64,000 nucleotides of DNA from Escherichia coli (GTDB lineage: Bacteria > Pseudomonadota > Gammaproteobacteria > Enterobacterales > Enterobacteriaceae), in NCBI RefSeq assembly GCF_050920415.1, contig NZ_CP169309.1; one strand, 5' to 3'. Made by a program: the position numbers and the translations under genes. This document shows, in pieces, positions 44,259 through 59,285 of this stretch (the stretch's first letter is position 1; each line of letters starts with the position of its first letter). The notes under the pieces were generated by a model. The model did no database searches, was not told the origin of the DNA, and saw only the letters and a list, made by a program, of their open reading frames with translations.

Positions 44259-47108
44259 TTGAAATACCTTGCTTCTTTTCGTACAACCCTGAAAGCCTCG
44301 CGCTACATGTTCAGAGCATTGGCGTTAGTGCTCTGGCTGTTGATTGCTTTTTCATCCGTTTTTTACATCGTTAATGCGTTGCATCAGCGAGAATCGGAAA
44401 TTCGTCAGGAATTTAATCTGAGTTCCGATCAGGCTCAGCGCTTTATTCAACGCACCTCTGATGTGATGAAAGAGCTGAAGTACATAGCTGAAAATCGCTT
44501 ATCGGCAGAAAACGGTGTGCTTTCGCCGCGTGGACGAGAAACGCAGGCAGATGTGCCTGTGTTTGAACCACTGTTTGCCGACTCCGATTGTTCCGCAATG
44601 AGTAACACCTGGCGAGGTTCTCTGGAGTCATTGGCGTGGTTTATGCGCTACTGGCGCGATAATTTCTCTGCGGCTTACGATCTCAACCGGGTATTTTTAA
44701 TCGGCAGCGATAACCTCTGCATGGCCAATTTCGGTCTACGTGATATGCCAGTGGAACGCGATACCGCATTGAAAGCTTTGCATGAACGCATCAATAAATA
44801 TCGAAATGCACCACAAGATGATAGCGGCAGTAACCTCTACTGGATCAGCGAAGGTCCGCGCCCTGGCGTCGGGTATTTTTACGCCTTGACGCCAGTTTAT
44901 CTGGCGAACCGGTTGCAGGCGCTTTTGGGTGTCGAGCAGACCATCAGGATGGAGAACTTCTTCTTACCTGGTACGTTGCCGATGGGGGTAACCATTCTTG
45001 ATGAAAATGGTCATACCCTGATTTCGCTTACCGGACCGGAAAGCAAGATTAAGAGCGATCCTCGCTGGATGCAGGAACGTTCCTGGTTTGGCTATACGGA
45101 AGGGTTCAGGGAACTGGTGCTGAAGAAAAACCTGCCACCTTCATCGTTAAGCATCGTCTATTCGGTGCCGGTTGATAAGGTGCTGGAGCGCATTCGCATG
45201 TTGATCCTTAACGCGATTTTACTGAATGTGCTTGCCGGAGCCGCGTTGTTTACTCTCGCACGGATGTACGAGCGGCGTATATTCATTCCTGCGGAAAGCG
45301 ACGCCCTGCGACTGGAAGAGCACGAGCAGTTTAATCGCAAGATTGTCGCTTCCGCGCCAGTGGGTATCTGCATTTTGCGTACCGCTGATGGCGTTAATAT
45401 TTTAAGTAACGAACTTGCGCATACCTATCTCAATATGCTTACGCATGAGGATCGCCAACGACTGACGCAAATTATCTGTGGTCAGCAGGTCAATTTTGTT
45501 GATGTCCTGACCAGCAACAATACCAATCTGCAAATCAGCTTCGTCCATTCGCGCTATCGTAATGAAAACGTCGCCATTTGTGTGCTGGTGGATGTTTCTT
45601 CGCGCGTGAAGATGGAAGAGTCGTTGCAGGAGATGGCACAAGCAGCGGAACAGGCGAGCCAGTCAAAATCGATGTTCCTTGCCACCGTCAGTCATGAGCT
45701 GCGAACGCCGCTATATGGCATTATCGGTAACCTGGATCTTTTGCAAACCAAAGAGTTACCGAAAGGCGTCGATCGTCTGGTGACGGCAATGAACAACTCT
45801 TCCAGCCTGTTGTTGAAAATTATCAGCGATATTCTCGACTTCTCGAAGATTGAATCGGAACAGTTGAAGATCGAACCGCGTGAGTTTTCACCGCGTGAAG
45901 TGATGAACCACATCACCGCCAACTATTTGCCGCTGGTGGTACGCAAGCAGCTAGGCTTGTACTGCTTTATTGAACCGGATGTGCCAGTGGCCTTAAATGG
46001 CGACCCAATGCGTTTACAGCAGGTCATCTCCAACCTGTTGAGTAACGCCATAAAATTCACCGATACCGGCTGTATAGTTCTGCATGTTCGAGCTGATGGC
46101 GATTATCTCTCTATCCGCGTTCGCGATACCGGCGTAGGGATTCCGGCGAAAGAAGTGGTGCGCTTGTTTGATCCCTTCTTCCAGGTCGGAACGGGCGTAC
46201 AGCGAAACTTCCAGGGGACCGGTCTGGGTCTGGCGATTTGTGAAAAACTGATCAGCATGATGGACGGCGATATCTCGGTAGATTCAGAACCGGGAATGGG
46301 CAGCCAGTTTACCGTGCGTATTCCGTTGTACGGCGCTCAGTACCCGCAGAAAAAAGGCGTGGAAGGGTTGAGTGGTAAACGCTGCTGGCTGGCGGTCCGC
46401 AATGCGTCGCTCTGTCAGTTCCTGGAAACCAGTTTGCAGCGCAGCGGCATAGTCGTTACAACATACGAAGGGCAGGAACCGACTCCCGAAGATGTGTTAA
46501 TCACTGACGAGGTAGTGAGCAAAAAATGGCAGGGTAGAGCGGTAGTGACCTTCTGTCGTCGCCATATTGGTATTCCGCTGGAGAAAGCGCCAGGGGAGTG
46601 GGTACACAGTGTGGCTGCACCGCATGAGCTACCGGCATTGTTGGCGCGTATTTATTTGATCGAGATAGAGAGCGATGATCCTGCTAACGCTCTGCCGTCG
46701 ACGGACAAAGCGGTCAGCGATAACGACGATATGATGATTCTGGTCGTGGATGATCATCCGATTAACCGGCGTCTGCTGGCAGATCAGTTGGGATCGCTGG
46801 GCTATCAATGTAAAACCGCGAATGATGGCGTCGATGCGCTTAATGTACTTAGCAAGAATCATATTGATATCGTGCTTAGCGACGTCAACATGCCAAATAT
46901 GGATGGTTACCGCTTGACGCAACGCATTCGTCAGTTGGGGCTGACGTTGCCGGTAATCGGAGTAACTGCTAATGCGCTGGCTGAAGAGAAGCAGCGGTGT
47001 CTGGAGTCCGGTATGGACAGCTGCCTGTCGAAGCCGGTAACGCTGGATGTGATAAAACAGACACTGACGGTATATGCCGAGAGGGTTCGGAAATCGCGGG
47101 AATCGTAG
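44259..47108 (+). CDS. rcsC: Hybrid sensor kinase RcsC
   Basis: 949-aa ORF; H-box (SHELRTPLYGI), HATPase domain and C-terminal receiver domain (MMILVVDDHPINRRL...D). Confidence 0.95.
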   Translation: MKYLASFRTTLKASRYMFRALALVLWLLIAFSSVFYIVNALHQRESEIRQEFNLSSDQAQRFIQRTSDVMKELKYIAENRLSAENGVLSPRGRETQADVPVFEPLFADSDCSAMSNTWRGSLESLAWFMRYWRDNFSAAYDLNRVFLIGSDNLCMANFGLRDMPVERDTALKALHERINKYRNAPQDDSGSNLYWISEGPRPGVGYFYALTPVYLANRLQALLGVEQTIRMENFFLPGTLPMGVTILDENGHTLISLTGPESKIKSDPRWMQERSWFGYTEGFRELVLKKNLPPSSLSIVYSVPVDKVLERIRMLILNAILLNVLAGAALFTLARMYERRIFIPAESDALRLEEHEQFNRKIVASAPVGICILRTADGVNILSNELAHTYLNMLTHEDRQRLTQIICGQQVNFVDVLTSNNTNLQISFVHSRYRNENVAICVLVDVSSRVKMEESLQEMAQAAEQASQSKSMFLATVSHELRTPLYGIIGNLDLLQTKELPKGVDRLVTAMNNSSSLLLKIISDILDFSKIESEQLKIEPREFSPREVMNHITANYLPLVVRKQLGLYCFIEPDVPVALNGDPMRLQQVISNLLSNAIKFTDTGCIVLHVRADGDYLSIRVRDTGVGIPAKEVVRLFDPFFQVGTGVQRNFQGTGLGLAICEKLISMMDGDISVDSEPGMGSQFTVRIPLYGAQYPQKKGVEGLSGKRCWLAVRNASLCQFLETSLQRSGIVVTTYEGQEPTPEDVLITDEVVSKKWQGRAVVTFCRRHIGIPLEKAPGEWVHSVAAPHELPALLARIYLIEIESDDPANALPSTDKAVSDNDDMMILVVDDHPINRRLLADQLGSLGYQCKTANDGVDALNVLSKNHIDIVLSDVNMPNMDGYRLTQRIRQLGLTLPVIGVTANALAEEKQRCLESGMDSCLSKPVTLDVIKQTLTVYAERVRKSRES

Positions 47109-47306
<198 letters not shown>

Positions 47307-47973: not shown

Positions 47974-50646
47974 CTACAGCAAGCTCTTGACATAACTGTC
48001 AATGTCGCTGATGTATTTTTCTATTCCTGGAACATCCTTCTCACGAATCAGATGTTCCAGCGTTTCACATAACTGCTTGCCGGGTACCAGATTTAGCATG
48101 GCAAATACGCCTTTAAGACGATGAGCCGTTTGGGCTAACGCAGCAAAGTCACTGGTTGCTGCTTCAGTATACAGCCTCTTAACATCATCCGGTACTGTGT
48201 CTACAAAGAGCGCATAATAGCCGCTGGCATGGAGTTGCGCATTTTCATCTCCGCCCAGAGGCGATTCTGTCACCTCTTCCTGCGCCAGTTGCACTTCAAT
48301 TAATTGTAAGACCGCTTCCTGCATAGCGTTGCTCATATTGAAGTTGACGCACAATTGACCAGGCCCAATTTCCCGTACGCCAGACTCATCATCGCTTAAA
48401 AGCAAGCCAGAGGCAGTAAGATTAGACGGATTATCCGTTAAAAAGATATCATAATCTTGACTAATTAATCTTTCATCGGGTGTGATACAGGTTGCACCCC
48501 AATTTTCTAACTGGCGAGTGACAATATTCCGAATTTCTGCCGAAGTAACATCCACCATTATGCAGACATCATCCAGTAATCGTTCTTCTTCCTCTTCAAC
48601 TTCCGGGTCAGCTGCGAGCATTTTGATATGCACAGAGTAGCGTGTACCAAGCCCATCCCGCGTTTTGATGTTTAAATGACCGCCCAGTTTACGCGCCAGT
48701 TGATCGCTCAACCAGAATGCCAGCGGGTCGGCCTTGCCATAGCGATCGTTTTGGGTCCGGTTGATAAACGGGAAGTGCAAATTATCCATTTCATGAATGC
48801 TTACGCCTTCTCCGGTGTCCAGAATGCGGAACGTCAGGCGGTCTTCGGAGGACTCATCCTGATCAACCTCAAGGGTGATTTTTCCCAATTGCGTTGAGGT
48901 CACGGCATATTGCATCAGTAGTAGCAAAATACGTCGTAAGGCATCGCGATCGCCGCGGCGCATATCGTGTGCTTTCAGATGATTGTTAATCAGCAGTTGC
49001 AGACCTTTACGCTTGATGGCAGGCAATACTGAAGGCACAACTTCATCAATCAAATCCTGCACGGAGAACAGCTCCGTCTCACTTTTCCAGCTATCGTCCG
49101 CAAGCATATTCGCTAACTGTATTTCATCGACCAGCCGCACCAGCACATCTGCCTGATTCGCCAGTTGTTTGCCTTCCGGGGCGTTGAGTTTAGCCGCGCT
49201 CTCCGCCAGGGACTGTGCGGGTTCTTTCAGCGCATCGCCAATGTTTTTCATAAAGGTCATCCGCCCCTGCTGGTTTTTCTCATACAGACGCTGCGCCTGC
49301 TTGAGTTTCTTGTTTACCAGCACTTCGCGATCCTGATCGCGAATAATGAAAATTTGTGTGCGCGGCGCAACCTGGCTGCGGAACATGCGGATCTCATACA
49401 GCTCGTTATTGATCGTCGCCTGAATAATCCCCTGATGCTGTTCCGCCATGGTGGTGATGTTTTGCAGATTTAAATGCGGCAGCAGGTGATCGGCAATTTT
49501 GTTACTTATGACCGTGCGGTTCGATTCCTGATCGTGAACCAGCAGGCCGAGCGGCAGCAGTGAGACTATCTCTTCATTAATTGCCCGTAAAATGCGCAAT
49601 TCGTTATTGACCGCCGTGCTGGGGACGCTTTCTGTACTGCGGCTGGAGAAATGGCGGAATGTGGTATAGCCAAATAACGCCAGCGCCAGCAAACCGATGT
49701 TCAGCAGCAGTGGCAGCAGAATGTTTTGCAACGTATCCAGCAATAAGGTGCCATAAGGAACCTGCCAGACCAGGCGCATATCGGTAGAGTTGAGTGCCGA
49801 GGAGATTTCAATCTTCGTACTGTTAAAGTGGATACTGACGCTATCCGTCCCTTCTTTCTCATTTTCATTGTTTCCCGTTGCCGTCGCGTCTGGCTCAAGG
49901 CGGAAACTGTCCAGCGGCATACCCGGTGGGATCAAATCATTAATCGGCAGATCAAAAGCAACGACCGTTGCCAGATGTCCCGGCTGGTTGAACGTGGTAC
50001 GCAAGGTAAAGTAATGACCGTTCTGCCAGGCCAGGCGGCGCAGGTTAGAAAAACTTTCGCGTTCATCGAGCGCGTTGGCCTGTTGCAACATCTCTGCGCG
50101 ACGTGAATCAACAATGTCGCTGACGGTCGATTCTTTAAATCCGGAGGTGAGATCTTTGAGGGGCAGGGTCGAGATCAGTACCAGACTGTTATCCTGACCA
50201 TTCAGGTAATACATCGACCACGGTACATTTTCTGCGCCCCACAATGTGTCCAGATAGGTGGACATCCGTTGAGTCATCTCAAGCGTTGAGTTGTCGTGAG
50301 AGCCAAAGATTAACGCTTCCGTTTTGCGGCGTGGTTTTTCCAGATAGTAGACATCCTGTTTCAGGCGCGTCTCTTGTAAACCTTCGCCGGAGGAGGGGGA
50401 GGTCGTCGCGGCAATGTTGTCGTAGATCTGCCAGGTCACGTAACGCCAGGTATCGACGCGCTTTTGGATTGCGTGGGTAATGTCGACAATCTGGTAACTT
50501 TTATCTTTCAGCCAGGCGTTAACGGCGCTTTGCACCATTACACCCATCGTCACCAGTAACACAATGATCAACAGTAAAAAGAAGCGGGTAATGCTCCCCG
50601 GTAGGAGTGAAAAGCGGGTCGTGGCCGTTGTCTCTTTCTGACGCAT
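47974..50646 (-). CDS. rcsD: Phosphotransfer intermediate RcsD
   Basis: 890-aa ORF beginning MRQKETTATTRFSLLPGSITRFFLLLIIVLLV... with a C-terminal HPt domain (AHRLKG). Confidence 0.93.
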   Translation of the reverse strand: MRQKETTATTRFSLLPGSITRFFLLLIIVLLVTMGVMVQSAVNAWLKDKSYQIVDITHAIQKRVDTWRYVTWQIYDNIAATTSPSSGEGLQETRLKQDVYYLEKPRRKTEALIFGSHDNSTLEMTQRMSTYLDTLWGAENVPWSMYYLNGQDNSLVLISTLPLKDLTSGFKESTVSDIVDSRRAEMLQQANALDERESFSNLRRLAWQNGHYFTLRTTFNQPGHLATVVAFDLPINDLIPPGMPLDSFRLEPDATATGNNENEKEGTDSVSIHFNSTKIEISSALNSTDMRLVWQVPYGTLLLDTLQNILLPLLLNIGLLALALFGYTTFRHFSSRSTESVPSTAVNNELRILRAINEEIVSLLPLGLLVHDQESNRTVISNKIADHLLPHLNLQNITTMAEQHQGIIQATINNELYEIRMFRSQVAPRTQIFIIRDQDREVLVNKKLKQAQRLYEKNQQGRMTFMKNIGDALKEPAQSLAESAAKLNAPEGKQLANQADVLVRLVDEIQLANMLADDSWKSETELFSVQDLIDEVVPSVLPAIKRKGLQLLINNHLKAHDMRRGDRDALRRILLLLMQYAVTSTQLGKITLEVDQDESSEDRLTFRILDTGEGVSIHEMDNLHFPFINRTQNDRYGKADPLAFWLSDQLARKLGGHLNIKTRDGLGTRYSVHIKMLAADPEVEEEEERLLDDVCIMVDVTSAEIRNIVTRQLENWGATCITPDERLISQDYDIFLTDNPSNLTASGLLLSDDESGVREIGPGQLCVNFNMSNAMQEAVLQLIEVQLAQEEVTESPLGGDENAQLHASGYYALFVDTVPDDVKRLYTEAATSDFAALAQTAHRLKGVFAMLNLVPGKQLCETLEHLIREKDVPGIEKYISDIDSYVKSLL

Positions 50647-50948
50647 TCGTGTTTATGACCTGTTAAAACTTCGCGAAGTGATAGGGCAGTATAAAGGGTA
50701 CAGTGTGAAATTCCAGACTCTTACCTGATTGATGATTCTCTATTCTCCCGTGATATTTATCATCCTGCATTGGGGGAAATAGATGTACAAGTGCCATTTT
50801 GCTGTACAAATAACCTACAAAAAGCCTAACGAAATTAATTGCAAATAAACGAAGATTGCTGGAAATTATGCTGATGTTAATTATTTGTGAAATAGTTAAC
50901 AAGCGTTATAGTTTTTCTGTGGTAGCACAGAATAATGAAAAGTGTGTA

Positions 50949-51051
50949 AAGAAGGGTAAAAAAAAACCGGATGCGAGGCATCCGGTTGAAATAGGGGTAA
51001 ACAGACATTCAGAAATGAATGACGGTAATAAATAAAGTTAATGATGATAGC
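50949..51051 (-). ncRNA. micF: MicF antisense sRNA (represses ompF translation)
   Basis: Minus strand reads GCTATCATCATTAACTTTATTTATTACCGTCATTCATTTCTGAATGTCTGTTTACCCCTATTTCAACCGGATGCCTCGCATCCGG followed by a T-run, matching my recollection of micF with its terminator hairpin; divergent from ompC. Confidence 0.85.
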
Positions 51052-51370
51052 GGGAGATATTCTAGTTGCGAGTGAAGGTTTTGTTTTGACATTCAGTGCT
51101 GTCAAATACTTAAGAATAAGTTATTGATTTTAACCTTGAATTATTATTGCTTGATGTTAGGTGCTTATTTCGCCATTCCGCAATAATCTTAAAAAGTTCC
51201 CTTGTATTTACATTCTGAAACATCTATAGCGATAAATGAAACATCTTAAAAGTTTTAGTATCATATTCGTGTTGGATTATTCTGCATTTTTGGGGAGAAT
51301 GGACTTGCCGACTGATTAATGAGGGTTAATCAGTATGCAGTGGCATAAAAAAGCAAATAAAGGCATATAA

Positions 51371-52489
<1,119 letters not shown>

Positions 52490-52507
52490 TCTCGATTGAT
52501 ATCGAAC

Positions 52508-52531
52508 AAAGGGCCTGCGGGCCCTTTTTTC
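52508..52531 (+). terminator. Rho-independent terminator after ompC
   Basis: aaagggcctgcgggccc followed by TTTTTT about 20 nt after the ompC stop. Confidence 0.8.
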
Positions 52532-52600
52532 ATTGTTTTCAGCGTACAAACACAGTTTTTTGGTGTACTCTTGCGACCGTTCGCATGAGGATAATCACGT

Positions 52601-53656
52601 ATGGAAATAAGCTTTACCCGCGTGGCACTGCTGGCTGCCGCGCTCTTCTTTGTTGGTTGCGATCAAAAACCACAACCCGCCAAAACCCACGCTATTGAAG
52701 TTACCGTTCTCGAAGGCAAAACCATGGGTACCTTCTGGCGTGCCAGCATTCCGGGCATTGACGCCAAACGCAGTGCCGAACTTAAAGAAAAGATTCAGAC
52801 CCAGCTGGACGCCGACGATCAGCTGCTTTCGACCTATAAAAAAGATTCCGCGCTGATGCGATTTAACGACTCGCAAAGTTTATCGCCGTGGCCGGTAAGT
52901 GAAGCGATGGCCGATATCGTCACCACCTCGCTGCGCATTGGCGCAAGGACCGATGGTGCGATGGATATAACCGTCGGGCCGCTGGTGAATCTGTGGGGCT
53001 TTGGCCCGGAACAACAGCCGGTTCAAATTCCCAGCCAGGAACAAATTGATGCGATGAAAGCCAAAACCGGCTTACAGCACCTGACGGTCATTAATCAGTC
53101 GCATCAGCAATATCTGCAAAAAGACCTGCCGGATTTATATGTCGATCTCTCCACCGTCGGCGAAGGCTATGCGGCGGATCATCTGGCACGCTTGATGGAG
53201 CAGGAAGGGATTTCCCGCTATCTGGTGTCGGTGGGCGGCGCGCTGAACAGCCGTGGTATGAACGCTGAAGGCCAGCCGTGGCGGGTAGCGATTCAAAAAC
53301 CGACCGATCAGGAAAATGCGGTTCAGGCCGTGGTGGATATCAACGGTCATGGCATTAGCACCTCTGGCAGCTACCGTAACTATTACGAACTGGACGGCAA
53401 ACGTCTTTCTCATGTTATCGATCCGCAAACCGGGCGTCCCATCGAACACAATCTGGTATCCGTAACGGTGATTGCTCCGACGGCGCAGGAAGCCGATGCC
53501 TGGGATACTGGCTTAATGGTACTGGGGCCGGAGAAAGCCAAAGAGGTTGTTCGCCGGGAAGGGCTGGCGGTTTACATGATCACCAAAGAAGGCGATAGCT
53601 TTAAAACCTGGATGTCACCACAGTTTAAAAGCTTCCTTGTCAGCGAAAAAAATTAA
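52601..53656 (+). CDS. apbE: FAD:protein FMN transferase (ApbE/Ftp)
   Basis: 351-aa ORF with GAGGA RBS; lipoprotein-like signal peptide (ALLAAALFFVGC). Confidence 0.9.
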   Translation: MEISFTRVALLAAALFFVGCDQKPQPAKTHAIEVTVLEGKTMGTFWRASIPGIDAKRSAELKEKIQTQLDADDQLLSTYKKDSALMRFNDSQSLSPWPVSEAMADIVTTSLRIGARTDGAMDITVGPLVNLWGFGPEQQPVQIPSQEQIDAMKAKTGLQHLTVINQSHQQYLQKDLPDLYVDLSTVGEGYAADHLARLMEQEGISRYLVSVGGALNSRGMNAEGQPWRVAIQKPTDQENAVQAVVDINGHGISTSGSYRNYYELDGKRLSHVIDPQTGRPIEHNLVSVTVIAPTAQEADAWDTGLMVLGPEKAKEVVRREGLAVYMITKEGDSFKTWMSPQFKSFLVSEKN

Positions 53657-53729
53657 AGCGCAAGATTGTTGGTTTTTGTGCGATGGTGACCGGGCAGACT
53701 AAAGGCTATCCTTAACCTGGGAGCTGATT

Positions 53730-54794
53730 ATGAAAAACGCCACATGCTTAACTGACGATCAACGCTGGCAATCTGTCTTAGCCCGCGACCCGAACGCCGA
53801 CGGCGAATTCGTTTTCGCCGTGCGCACCACGGGTATCTTTTGCCGTCCGTCTTGCCGAGCCAGACATGCCTTGCGGGAAAATGTCTCCTTCTACGCAAAT
53901 GCCAGCGAGGCACTCGCCGCCGGATTTCGCCCCTGCAAACGTTGTCAGCCAGACAAAGCCAATCCCCGGCAACATCGCCTTGATAAAATTACCCACGCCT
54001 GCCGACTGCTGGAACAGGAAACGCCTGTAACGCTGGAAGCCTTAGCCGACCAGGTGGCGATGAGTCCGTTCCATCTGCATCGGTTGTTTAAAGCGACTAC
54101 CGGAATGACGCCTAAAGCCTGGCAACAGGCCTGGCGCGCTCGCCGTTTGCGTGAATCGCTGGCGAAAGGGGAGAGCGTGACGACGTCTATTCTTAACGCC
54201 GGATTCCCCGACAGCAGCAGTTACTACCGCAAAGCTGACGAAACGCTGGGCATGACGGCTAAACAATTCCGTCATGGTGGCGAAAATCTGGCGGTGCGTT
54301 ACGCGCTGGCTGATTGTGAGCTGGGCCGTTGCCTGGTGGCAGAAAGCGAGCGGGGGATTTGCGCGATATTGCTGGGCGATGATGACGCGACGCTAATCAG
54401 CGAGTTGCAGCAGATGTTTCCCGCTGCCGACAACGCGCCTGCCGATCTGCCGTTTCAGCAACATGTGCGTGAAGTGATCGCCAGCCTCAATCAACGCGAT
54501 ACGCCGCTGACGTTACCGCTGGACATTCGCGGCACTGCTTTTCAGCAACAAGTCTGGCAGGCACTGCGCACGATACCTTGTGGTGAAACCGTCAGTTATC
54601 AGCAACTGGCGAACGCCATCGGCAAACCGAAAGCGGTACGGGCCGTTGCCAGCGCCTGTGCAGCCAACAAGCTCGCTATCGTAATACCCTGTCATCGGGT
54701 AGTCCGTGGTGATGGCACACTTTCCGGTTACCGCTGGGGCGTGTCGCGCAAAGCGCAACTGCTGCGCCGTGAAGCTGAAAATGAGGAGAGGTAA
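53730..54794 (+). CDS. ada: Bifunctional Ada regulator / O6-methylguanine-DNA methyltransferase
   Basis: 354-aa ORF; N-terminal Cys cluster (CRPSCRAR...CKRCQP), AraC-type HTH, C-terminal active site PCHRV. Confidence 0.95.
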   Translation: MKNATCLTDDQRWQSVLARDPNADGEFVFAVRTTGIFCRPSCRARHALRENVSFYANASEALAAGFRPCKRCQPDKANPRQHRLDKITHACRLLEQETPVTLEALADQVAMSPFHLHRLFKATTGMTPKAWQQAWRARRLRESLAKGESVTTSILNAGFPDSSSYYRKADETLGMTAKQFRHGGENLAVRYALADCELGRCLVAESERGICAILLGDDDATLISELQQMFPAADNAPADLPFQQHVREVIASLNQRDTPLTLPLDIRGTAFQQQVWQALRTIPCGETVSYQQLANAIGKPKAVRAVASACAANKLAIVIPCHRVVRGDGTLSGYRWGVSRKAQLLRREAENEER

Positions 54795-55519: not shown

Positions 55520-57163
55520 ATGGAACTTCTTGTACTTGTCTGGCGGCAGTATCGCTGGCCATTTATCAGTGTGATGGCGCTAAGCCTCGCCAGTGCGGCA
55601 TTAGGCATTGGCTTAATTGCTTTTATCAATCAGCGCCTTATCGAAACGGCGGATACCAGTCTGCTGGTATTGCCGGAGTTTCTCGGTTTATTGCTGCTGC
55701 TAATGGCGGTGACGCTAGGTTCGCAACTGGCGCTCACCACTCTGGGGCATCATTTCGTTTACCGACTGCGTAGCGAATTTATCAAGCGGATTCTGGATAC
55801 TCACGTCGAGCGTATCGAACAACTCGGTAGCGCCTCGTTGCTGGCGGGGTTAACCAGCGATGTGCGCAATATCACTATTGCGTTTGTTCGTCTGCCAGAA
55901 CTGGTGCAGGGGATCATTCTCACTATCGGTTCGGCGGCGTATCTGTGGATGCTGTCGGGCAAGATGTTGCTGGTAACGGCTATCTGGATGGCGGTCACCA
56001 TCTGGGGCGGTTTTGTACTGGTGGCGCGGGTTTACAAACATATGGCGACCCTGCGTGAAACCGAAGACAAGCTGTACACGGATTTTCAAACTGTACTCGA
56101 AGGGCGCAAAGAGCTGACTCTTAACCGTGAACGCGCCGAGTATGTGTTTAACAACCTCTACATTCCTGATGCGCAAGAGTATCGCCATCATATCATCCGC
56201 GCAGACACCTTCCATCTTAGTGCTGTGAACTGGTCAAACATCATGATGCTGGGCGCAATCGGCCTGGTGTTCTGGATGGCGAACAGTCTCGGTTGGGCTG
56301 ATACCAACGTTGCCGCGACCTATTCGCTAACGCTGTTATTCCTGCGTACGCCGCTGCTTTCGGCGGTTGGCGCATTACCGACGCTGCTGACGGCGCAGGT
56401 AGCGTTTAACAAGCTGAATAAATTCGCGCTCGCACCTTTCAAAGCTGAGTTTCCGCGTCCGCAGACGTTTCCCAACTGGCAAACGCTGGAGCTGCGCAAT
56501 GTTACGTTTGCTTATCAGGATAACGCGTTTTCCGTTGGGCCGATTAACCTCACCATTAAACGTGGCGAACTGCTGTTTCTGATTGGCGGCAACGGTAGCG
56601 GAAAATCGACACTGGCCATGTTGCTGACGGGCTTGTATCAACCACAAAGCGGCGAAATTTTGCTGGATGGCAAACCTGTCAGCGGCGAACAACCGGAAGA
56701 TTATCGCAAACTGTTTTCGGCAGTGTTTACCGATGTCTGGTTGTTTGATCAACTGCTGGGGCCGGAGGGTCAACCCGCTAACCCGCAACTGGTTGAGAAG
56801 TGGCTGGCGCAGCTGAAAATGGCTCATAAGCTTGAGTTAAGCAACGGGCGTATTGTTAACCTGAAGTTATCAAAAGGGCAGAAAAAACGCGTCGCGCTGT
56901 TGCTGGCGCTGGCAGAAGAACGCGATATTATCCTGTTGGATGAATGGGCGGCGGATCAGGACCCACACTTCCGTCGTGAGTTTTATCAGGTGCTGCTGCC
57001 GCTGATGCAGGAGATGGGTAAAACGATTTTCGCCATCAGTCATGATGATCATTACTTTATCCACGCTGACCGCCTGCTGGAAATGCGCAACGGGCTACTT
57101 AGCGAGCTGACAGGCGAAGAGCGCGATGCTGCTTCGCGTGATGCCGTTGCCCGGACGGCATAA
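55520..57163 (+). CDS. yojI: ABC transporter (fused permease/ATPase) YojI
   Basis: 547-aa ORF: N-terminal TM domain, C-terminal ATPase with Walker A (GGNGSGKST) and Walker B ([10 protein letters not shown]). Confidence 0.9.
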
Positions 57164-57368
57164 TATTTCGACGCTGACCTGGCGGACTGCTGCCGCCAGG
57201 TCAATATTCTAAAAAACCCTTCGTTTCTAATAACCCTATAATTAATCAACGAAATTATAATGTTTCTAAAATTAGAATATAATTTATAAACATTATTTAA
57301 ATGTTGTTACTTAAGTGTTACCGTTGATGCCGCGCAAATCTCACCTGCAATAAAGCGACTAAAAGTAA

Positions 57369-59029: not shown

Positions 59030-59285
59030 ATGTGCCACATCCGGCATGTTATGCCGGATGTGGCGTATGCTGATAAGACGCGCCAGCGTCGCATCAGTCA
59101 ACCGGCTTGGGCGTTAGATGTCGGATGCGGCGTGACCGCCTTATCCGACCTACGGGGTGGAGCACTTCACAGCGGTGTAGGCCTGATAAGACGCGCCAGC
59201 GTCGCATCAGGCAACCGGCTCGGGCGTTGGATGTCGGATGCGGCGTGACCGCCTTATCCGACCTACGGGGTGCCGCACTTCACGG
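59030..59285. repeat. REP/BIME cluster between convergent mqo and eco
   Basis: Two tandem units about 120 bp apart (…gatgcggcgtgaccgccttatccgacctacggggtg…) plus flanking gccggatg / catccggc palindromes. Confidence 0.8.

Follow-up and report, generated by a model that had tools for sequence, protein, structure and literature searches.

The minus strand at positions 50959–51051 carries the ordinary chromosomal micF gene of Escherichia coli, which encodes the antisense small RNA (sRNA) against the OmpF porin. The gene is intact and lies at its usual site by ompC, an assignment to which we give a probability of about 0.98 and against which no substantial evidence speaks. With its discovery in 1984, MicF became the first regulatory RNA known to act in trans; it connects outer-membrane permeability with osmotic and oxidative stress and with stress from antibiotics. 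The gene itself is already known, and the copy described here qualifies as a member of the Rfam MicF family (RF00033) by every criterion that a sequence comparison can address. From the literature, we infer for this copy transcription, dependence on Hfq and on regulators, and further targets of the lrp type. The value of the result lies in correct annotation: naming micF from raw sequence is useful bookkeeping and no discovery.

Identity and genomic setting of micF

A permissive scan of positions 48000–54000 within the analysed stretch of DNA (64 kb; the window) returned an RF00033 match at 50959–51052 on the minus strand. It covers model positions 1–94 of 94 (116.8 bits, E = 8.9e-19), and its posterior probabilities are at the maximum across the full-model match. 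The gathering score of the family is 79. The original prediction had recognised MicF on the minus strand and had named alignment to the Rfam model as the check; the full-length match, far over the gathering score, bears it out. When all 64 kb were scanned, MicF was the top Rfam match at the gathering threshold.

The gene and its surroundings comprise the following features:

50959–51051, minus strand: micF, 93 nt by homology with K-12 b4439 (Rfam, allele survey)
44259–47108, plus strand: rcsC (NCBIfam, far over cut-off)
47974–50646, minus strand: rcsD, downstream of micF on the same strand (NCBIfam RcsD, 1569 bits; RefSeq annotation of an identical locus)
51386–52489, plus strand: ompC, divergent neighbour, 367 aa (NCBIfam porin OmpC, 773 bits; RefSeq annotation of an identical locus)
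52601–53656, plus strand: apbE (NCBIfam, far over cut-off)

The +1 position of the K-12 micF annotation corresponds to 51051. At the other end the U-run reaches 50958, so that the transcript here may be 94 nt long. The interval first proposed for the gene, 50949–51051, was therefore exact at its upper end, which coincides with the K-12 +1, and too long at its lower end, which lies 9–10 nt past the end of the U-run.

The local gene order is rcsC, rcsB, rcsD and micF, followed by the divergent ompC and apbE, and the RcsB open reading frame (ORF) also scores far over its NCBIfam cut-off. The start of rcsD lies 312 bp downstream of micF on the same strand. The intergenic region between rcsD and ompC (50647–51385) measures 739 bp, in agreement with the roughly 740 bp estimated beforehand. 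It is 99% identical to that of K-12 MG1655, whose annotation has micF (b4439) at the colinear site; together with the neighbouring genes, this confirms that micF is divergent from ompC, as had been proposed. Only 233 of 5376 E. coli genomes carry the 739-bp haplotype at ≥99% identity. The region is 100% identical and annotated alike in MFDS1022581 (NZ_CP169399.1), which comes from an animal-source food in South Korea. In PGAP-annotated RefSeq records, no annotated feature lies under the micF matches.

The whole-window scan also yielded matches to another Rfam family, naRNA4 (RF02564). One lies at 47221–47297, where both strands match in the space that separates the convergent genes rcsC and rcsB; two others lie at 59068–59150 and 59180–59263. 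They look like palindromic repeats of the REP/BIME type, not dedicated genes.

RNA structure, alleles and conservation

The 93-nt MicF sequence folds with −21.4 kcal/mol (z = −5.4), a value that none of 200 shuffled sequences equalled. The minimum free energy fold consists of two hairpins behind an open 5′ end, in which the first ~25 nt are unpaired and nt 26–30 form only three weak flanking pairs. Its elements are as follows:

51006–51021, minus strand: internal stem-loop, MicF nt 31–46, 6 bp with a 4-nt loop (Rfam consensus structure and ViennaRNA fold)
50965–50987, minus strand: rho-independent terminator hairpin, MicF nt 65–87, 10 bp (6 G-C) with a 3-nt loop (terminator scan)
50958–50964, minus strand: U-tail beyond the hairpin, 7 U after the stem (sequence and K-12 alignment)

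The RNA thus has both structural hallmarks of MicF, the internal stem-loop and the rho-independent terminator with its U-tail. In Hfq-dependent sRNAs, such a U-tail serves as the Hfq-binding 3′ end. The terminator core, CCGGAUGCCUCGCAUCCGG, lies at 50985–50967 on the minus strand, and flanking AA/UU extends the stem to 10 bp. Counting two residues within the stem, the micF T-run has 9 T in all, vs 8 in K-12.

Within the 93 nt, the only difference from K-12 b4439 is a C in place of U at nt 82 (window position 50970; 92 of 93 nt identical). This C turns the pair with G70 from G·U into G-C and hence strengthens the hairpin, for which we calculated −15.8 kcal/mol here vs −12.9 kcal/mol in K-12. 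The perfect terminator stem singled out in the original prediction therefore reflects a real single-base difference from the K-12 G·U pair. The allele is nevertheless not unusual: among 5374 complete E. coli genomes with the locus, 3231 (60%) contain exactly these 93 nt, and the others are one or a few changes off. The perfect-stem allele is the majority form in E. coli, and it is the K-12 reference that carries the minority G·U form.

To place the gene in a wider context, we scanned for the conserved MicF 5′ end with an exact pattern, which located it at no fewer than 120 loci. The matches listed include Citrobacter, Salmonella, Klebsiella, Raoultella, Enterobacter, Kosakonia, Cedecea, Atlantibacter, Mangrovibacter and other genera. 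Among these 120 listed matches, a divergent OmpC-like gene lies upstream in 110, and rcsD follows downstream on the micF strand in 105; at the other loci the flanking sequence is too short. The listed matches comprise 101 distinct sequences. Identity of nt 1–28 among them stems in part from the search pattern itself and cannot count as independent evidence, while nt 29–35, which the pattern left free, are invariant or nearly so. Variation in these 101 sequences falls in the loop of helix 1 (the internal stem-loop), the linker (nt 54–64) and the stem and loop of the terminator, and includes indels of 1–2 nt.

Both helices are preserved across 100 distinct homologues among the matches listed, with 98% of cells in standard pairs. 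Seven of the 16 pairs show changes on both sides, and six of these seven belong to the 10-bp terminator. None of 500 column shuffles reached these figures, and sliding the 3′ partners by 1–3 columns left only 18–38% of cells paired. In helix 1, 99.7% of cells are paired in the same 100 homologues; its loop is variable and its loop-closing pair is A-U, G-U or G-C. Helix 1 is otherwise almost invariant, and its support is conservation, not covariation.

The most variable terminator pair of the family is the very pair that distinguishes this allele from K-12 (50982/50970; alignment columns 75/89). It is G-C in 50, A-U in 32 and G·U in 18 of the 100 distinct Enterobacteriaceae homologues among the matches listed. 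Accordingly, the K-12 G·U pair looks like the wobble intermediate of a compensatory switch between G-C and A-U across the Enterobacteriaceae.

These patterns bear directly on other ways of reading the locus. A TTG-start ORF of 69 aa (50896–51105, minus strand) overlaps micF on its own strand, and such an open frame of 69 codons might suggest that a small protein is encoded here. Neither this ORF nor a 79-aa ORF on the minus strand has a credible Pfam match, and a CDS is annotated there neither in K-12 nor, by PGAP, at the identical locus. Moreover, the 1- and 2-nt indels among homologues (alignment columns 54, 56–57, 64–65 and 80–81) would shift any frame, and conservation follows an RNA pattern, in which paired columns covary and loops are free to vary. 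Together, indels, Pfam, annotations and RNA-type conservation effectively refute a small protein, to which we assign next to no probability. We regard it as just as improbable that the element is a decayed, non-functional copy of micF. Nothing specific speaks for decay apart from the differences from K-12 at −6, in the terminator stem and in the length of the U-run. Against it stand the match to the full model, a 5′ pairing region as in K-12 and an intact −10 hexamer and mar/sox/rob box (see below); furthermore, the change in the stem strengthens the hairpin by the energies given above, and the RNA allele is the one most E. coli carry.

Slightly more plausible, and still very unlikely, is that the element chiefly serves rcsD, as its 5′ leader or attenuator, with read-through via a regulated terminator and no independent sRNA. 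micF and rcsD are indeed adjacent and co-oriented, an arrangement kept in 105 of the 120 loci among the matches listed. However, a hairpin of 10 bp (6 G-C) followed by a U-run is the architecture of an efficient intrinsic terminator, and a discrete RNA of 93 nt has been described (PMC5745476). Some read-through from micF into rcsD may occur, but it would add to the function of the sRNA and would not replace it. An intact micF encoding an independent sRNA is the reading we adopt in what follows.

Promoter and shared control region

A promoter had been expected near 51060–51100 on the minus strand, and its absence was to count against micF. A generic scan for the sigma-70 consensus found no minus-strand promoter upstream of 51051, this interval included. 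We attribute the blank to a poor −35 element (AAAACA, 17-bp spacing), as expected for an activator-dependent promoter. Phylogenetic footprinting, in contrast, revealed a conserved −10 hexamer and a mar/sox/rob box in this stretch, so that the expectation failed by the generic scan and held up by conservation:

51059–51064, minus strand: micF −10 hexamer TAGAAT, −13 to −8 (phylogenetic footprinting)
51083–51102, minus strand: predicted mar/sox/rob box ACAGCACTGAATGTCAAAAC, −51 to −32, with 1 mismatch to the consensus AYNGCACNNWNNRYYAAAYN and overlapping the weak −35

In the 117 upstream regions available among the matches listed, the −10 hexamer always reads TANNAT (TAAAAT in 87, TAGAAT in 22, TAATAT in 7 and TAACAT in 1). 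Mean identity over these 117 loci is 0.85 in the hexamer and 0.84 in the block of the mar/sox/rob box, vs about 0.5 in the flanks. A box with ≤2 mismatches to AYNGCACNNWNNRYYAAAYN is found at −51 or −50 in 101 of the 117 loci.

The mar/sox/rob box is the class II activator site for MarA, SoxS, Rob and RamA. A MarA ChIP-seq site, gcactgaatgtcaaa, has been listed for ompC<>micF (PMC5684230), and ACAGCACTGAATGTCAAAAC is identical to it. At micF, a class II activator site has been placed at about −41 and a cryo-EM structure with RamA has been determined (PMC8811837); the box described here is centred at −41.5, in agreement with that position. The consensus occurs 3 times in the whole window vs 1.35 expected, and 14 of 100 shuffles contained at least 3, so the count alone is not significant. 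The box carries weight by its position, its conservation and its identity to the ChIP-seq site, not by this count. The conserved −10 hexamer combined with a class II mar/sox/rob box indicates that the predicted micF promoter is present and activator-dependent, as is known for this gene.

Between the −10 hexamer and +1, window position 51057 (micF −6) is T vs A in K-12, and the exact 71-nt promoter context occurs in 935 of 5374 genomes.

OmpR motifs had been proposed for the interval 51060–51380, and an OmpR-type repeat was indeed found there. Using the published repeat GTTACATTTTGTTACAT (PMC5438342), we obtained the best match in the region at 51207–51223, where 13 of 17 positions agree; it corresponds to box C1 of ompC. 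Matches of this quality occur at only two sites in about 128,000 window positions. Weaker ones (10 or 11 of 17) are common in AT-rich DNA, with 17 in the intergenic region and 391 in the window, and only the 13/17 match at C1 was treated as meaningful. The predicted binding region is:

51207–51266, plus strand: predicted OmpR-binding region of ompC, with C1 at 51207–51226, C2 at 51227–51246 and C3 at 51247–51266 (C1 motif match)

We take the boundaries of C2 and C3 from the footprinting literature. The start of ompC we assume to lie near 51307, downstream of a GAGAAT −10 element, which would put C1–C3 at about −100 to −41 from that start. Seen from the other side, the OmpR region lies 156–215 bp upstream of the micF +1, in the control region common to ompC and micF.

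The other 13/17 match, TTTAAATGTTGTTACTT at 57296–57312 on the plus strand, lies just downstream of an ORF at 55520–57163 that is presumably yojI, by K-12 gene order, and is probably a chance match.

Two positions in and beside C1 differ among strains. The first C1 half-site reads TTTACATTCT here vs TTTACATTTT in K-12, owing to a C at 51215. This C is rare: it is found in two 71-nt haplotypes (61 + 88), that is, in 149 of about 5370 complete E. coli genomes (2.8%). A T at 51205, beside C1, is present in about 20% of E. coli genomes.

A further conserved block lies at 51148–51171 (micF −120 to −97; about −136 to −159 from the ompC start assumed above), 65 bp beyond the mar/sox/rob box and in the same orientation; its 20-nt box-like stretch is placed at 51148–51167 (micF −116 to −97) or at −119 to −100. 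Across the 117 loci among the matches listed, its near-invariant columns, G-C-A-C, A and A-T-C-A-A(-A), are exactly the invariants of the mar/sox/rob box, GCAC-N2-W-N2-RYYAAA. In 51 of these loci the block has ≤2 mismatches to AYNGCACNNWNNRYYAAAYN; the copy in the window has 3. The MarA ChIP-seq table (PMC5684230) lists the proximal box only, and we found no description of the distal block in the literature searched. It is conceivable, though in our judgement unlikely, that the block is an undescribed MarA/SoxS/Rob/RamA site common to micF and ompC, and that the rare C in C1, the −6 variant and the stronger terminator shift the set-point of OmpC, MicF and OmpF. Alternatively, a different regulator may bind the block.

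Predicted pairing with ompF and comparison with known systems

MicF is a 93-nt RNA encoded divergently from ompC that pairs with the ribosome binding site and AUG of ompF and prevents translation initiation; its gene is activated by OmpR, SoxS and MarA (PMC5745476). Lrp and MicF form a double-negative feedback loop, with lrp as a further target of MicF (PMC5175337). In the present copy, the region available for such pairing is identical to that of K-12:

51019–51051, minus strand: MicF nt 1–33, single-stranded 5′ target-pairing region, antisense to the ompF translation-initiation region

As ompF lies outside the window, the K-12 ompF leader served as the target; at ≥99% identity, this leader is present in 5079 of 5420 E. 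coli genomes. MicF nt 1–33 are predicted to form 25 pairs with ompF −17 to +11 (−27.1 kcal/mol), covering the GAGGG Shine-Dalgarno sequence at −14 and the AUG. Dinucleotide shuffling of the 33-mer (n = 1000) gave a mean of −13.7 kcal/mol (sd 2.9) and a best value of −25.2 kcal/mol, and none of the shuffles reached −27.1 kcal/mol. As a control, the same 33 nt paired with the ompC leader at −14.8 kcal/mol. The computed pairing reproduces the published mechanism.

A duplex computed between full-length MicF and the ompF leader was over-extended (56 pairs, z = −1.7, with 18 of 300 shuffles as good) and was dropped in favour of the 5′ 33 nt. It is uninformative because such a calculation takes no account of intramolecular structure and the two RNAs are rich in A and U.

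Taken together with published work, the locus would operate as follows. Transcription of micF would proceed leftward from +1 at 51051 and be ended by the strong intrinsic terminator at 50987–50958, yielding an RNA of about 93 nt. Since the −10 (TAGAAT) is good while the −35 is poor and overlapped by the class II mar/sox/rob box, transcription would depend on activators: on MarA, SoxS and Rob at this box, and on OmpR by way of the intergenic region common with ompC. Helped by Hfq, the unstructured 5′ 33 nt of MicF would pair with ompF mRNA over the Shine-Dalgarno sequence and start codon. This pairing would block binding of the 30S ribosome and so lower OmpF porin synthesis when osmolarity is high or when cells face oxidative or antibiotic stress.

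The closest known system is MicF of K-12 MG1655 (b4439, RF00033), which has the same locus, 5′ pairing region, two helices, mar/sox/rob box, −10 hexamer and ompC/rcsD neighbours. It differs in having U at nt 82, an 8-U run and A at −6, where the window has C, 9 U and T. Orthologues from other Enterobacteriaceae among the matches listed share near-invariance of the first 35 nt, the same architecture and the ompC-micF-rcsD synteny, whereas their loop, linker and terminator vary with compensatory changes, and most genera have TAAAAT as their −10 hexamer vs TAGAAT here. MicC, for which the Rfam scan of the 64-kb window gave no match, offers a functional parallel: it is likewise an Hfq-dependent sRNA divergent from a porin gene (ompN), and its 5′ end blocks the initiation region of the mRNA of another porin, ompC (PMC5745476). 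It differs from MicF in sequence family, locus and target.
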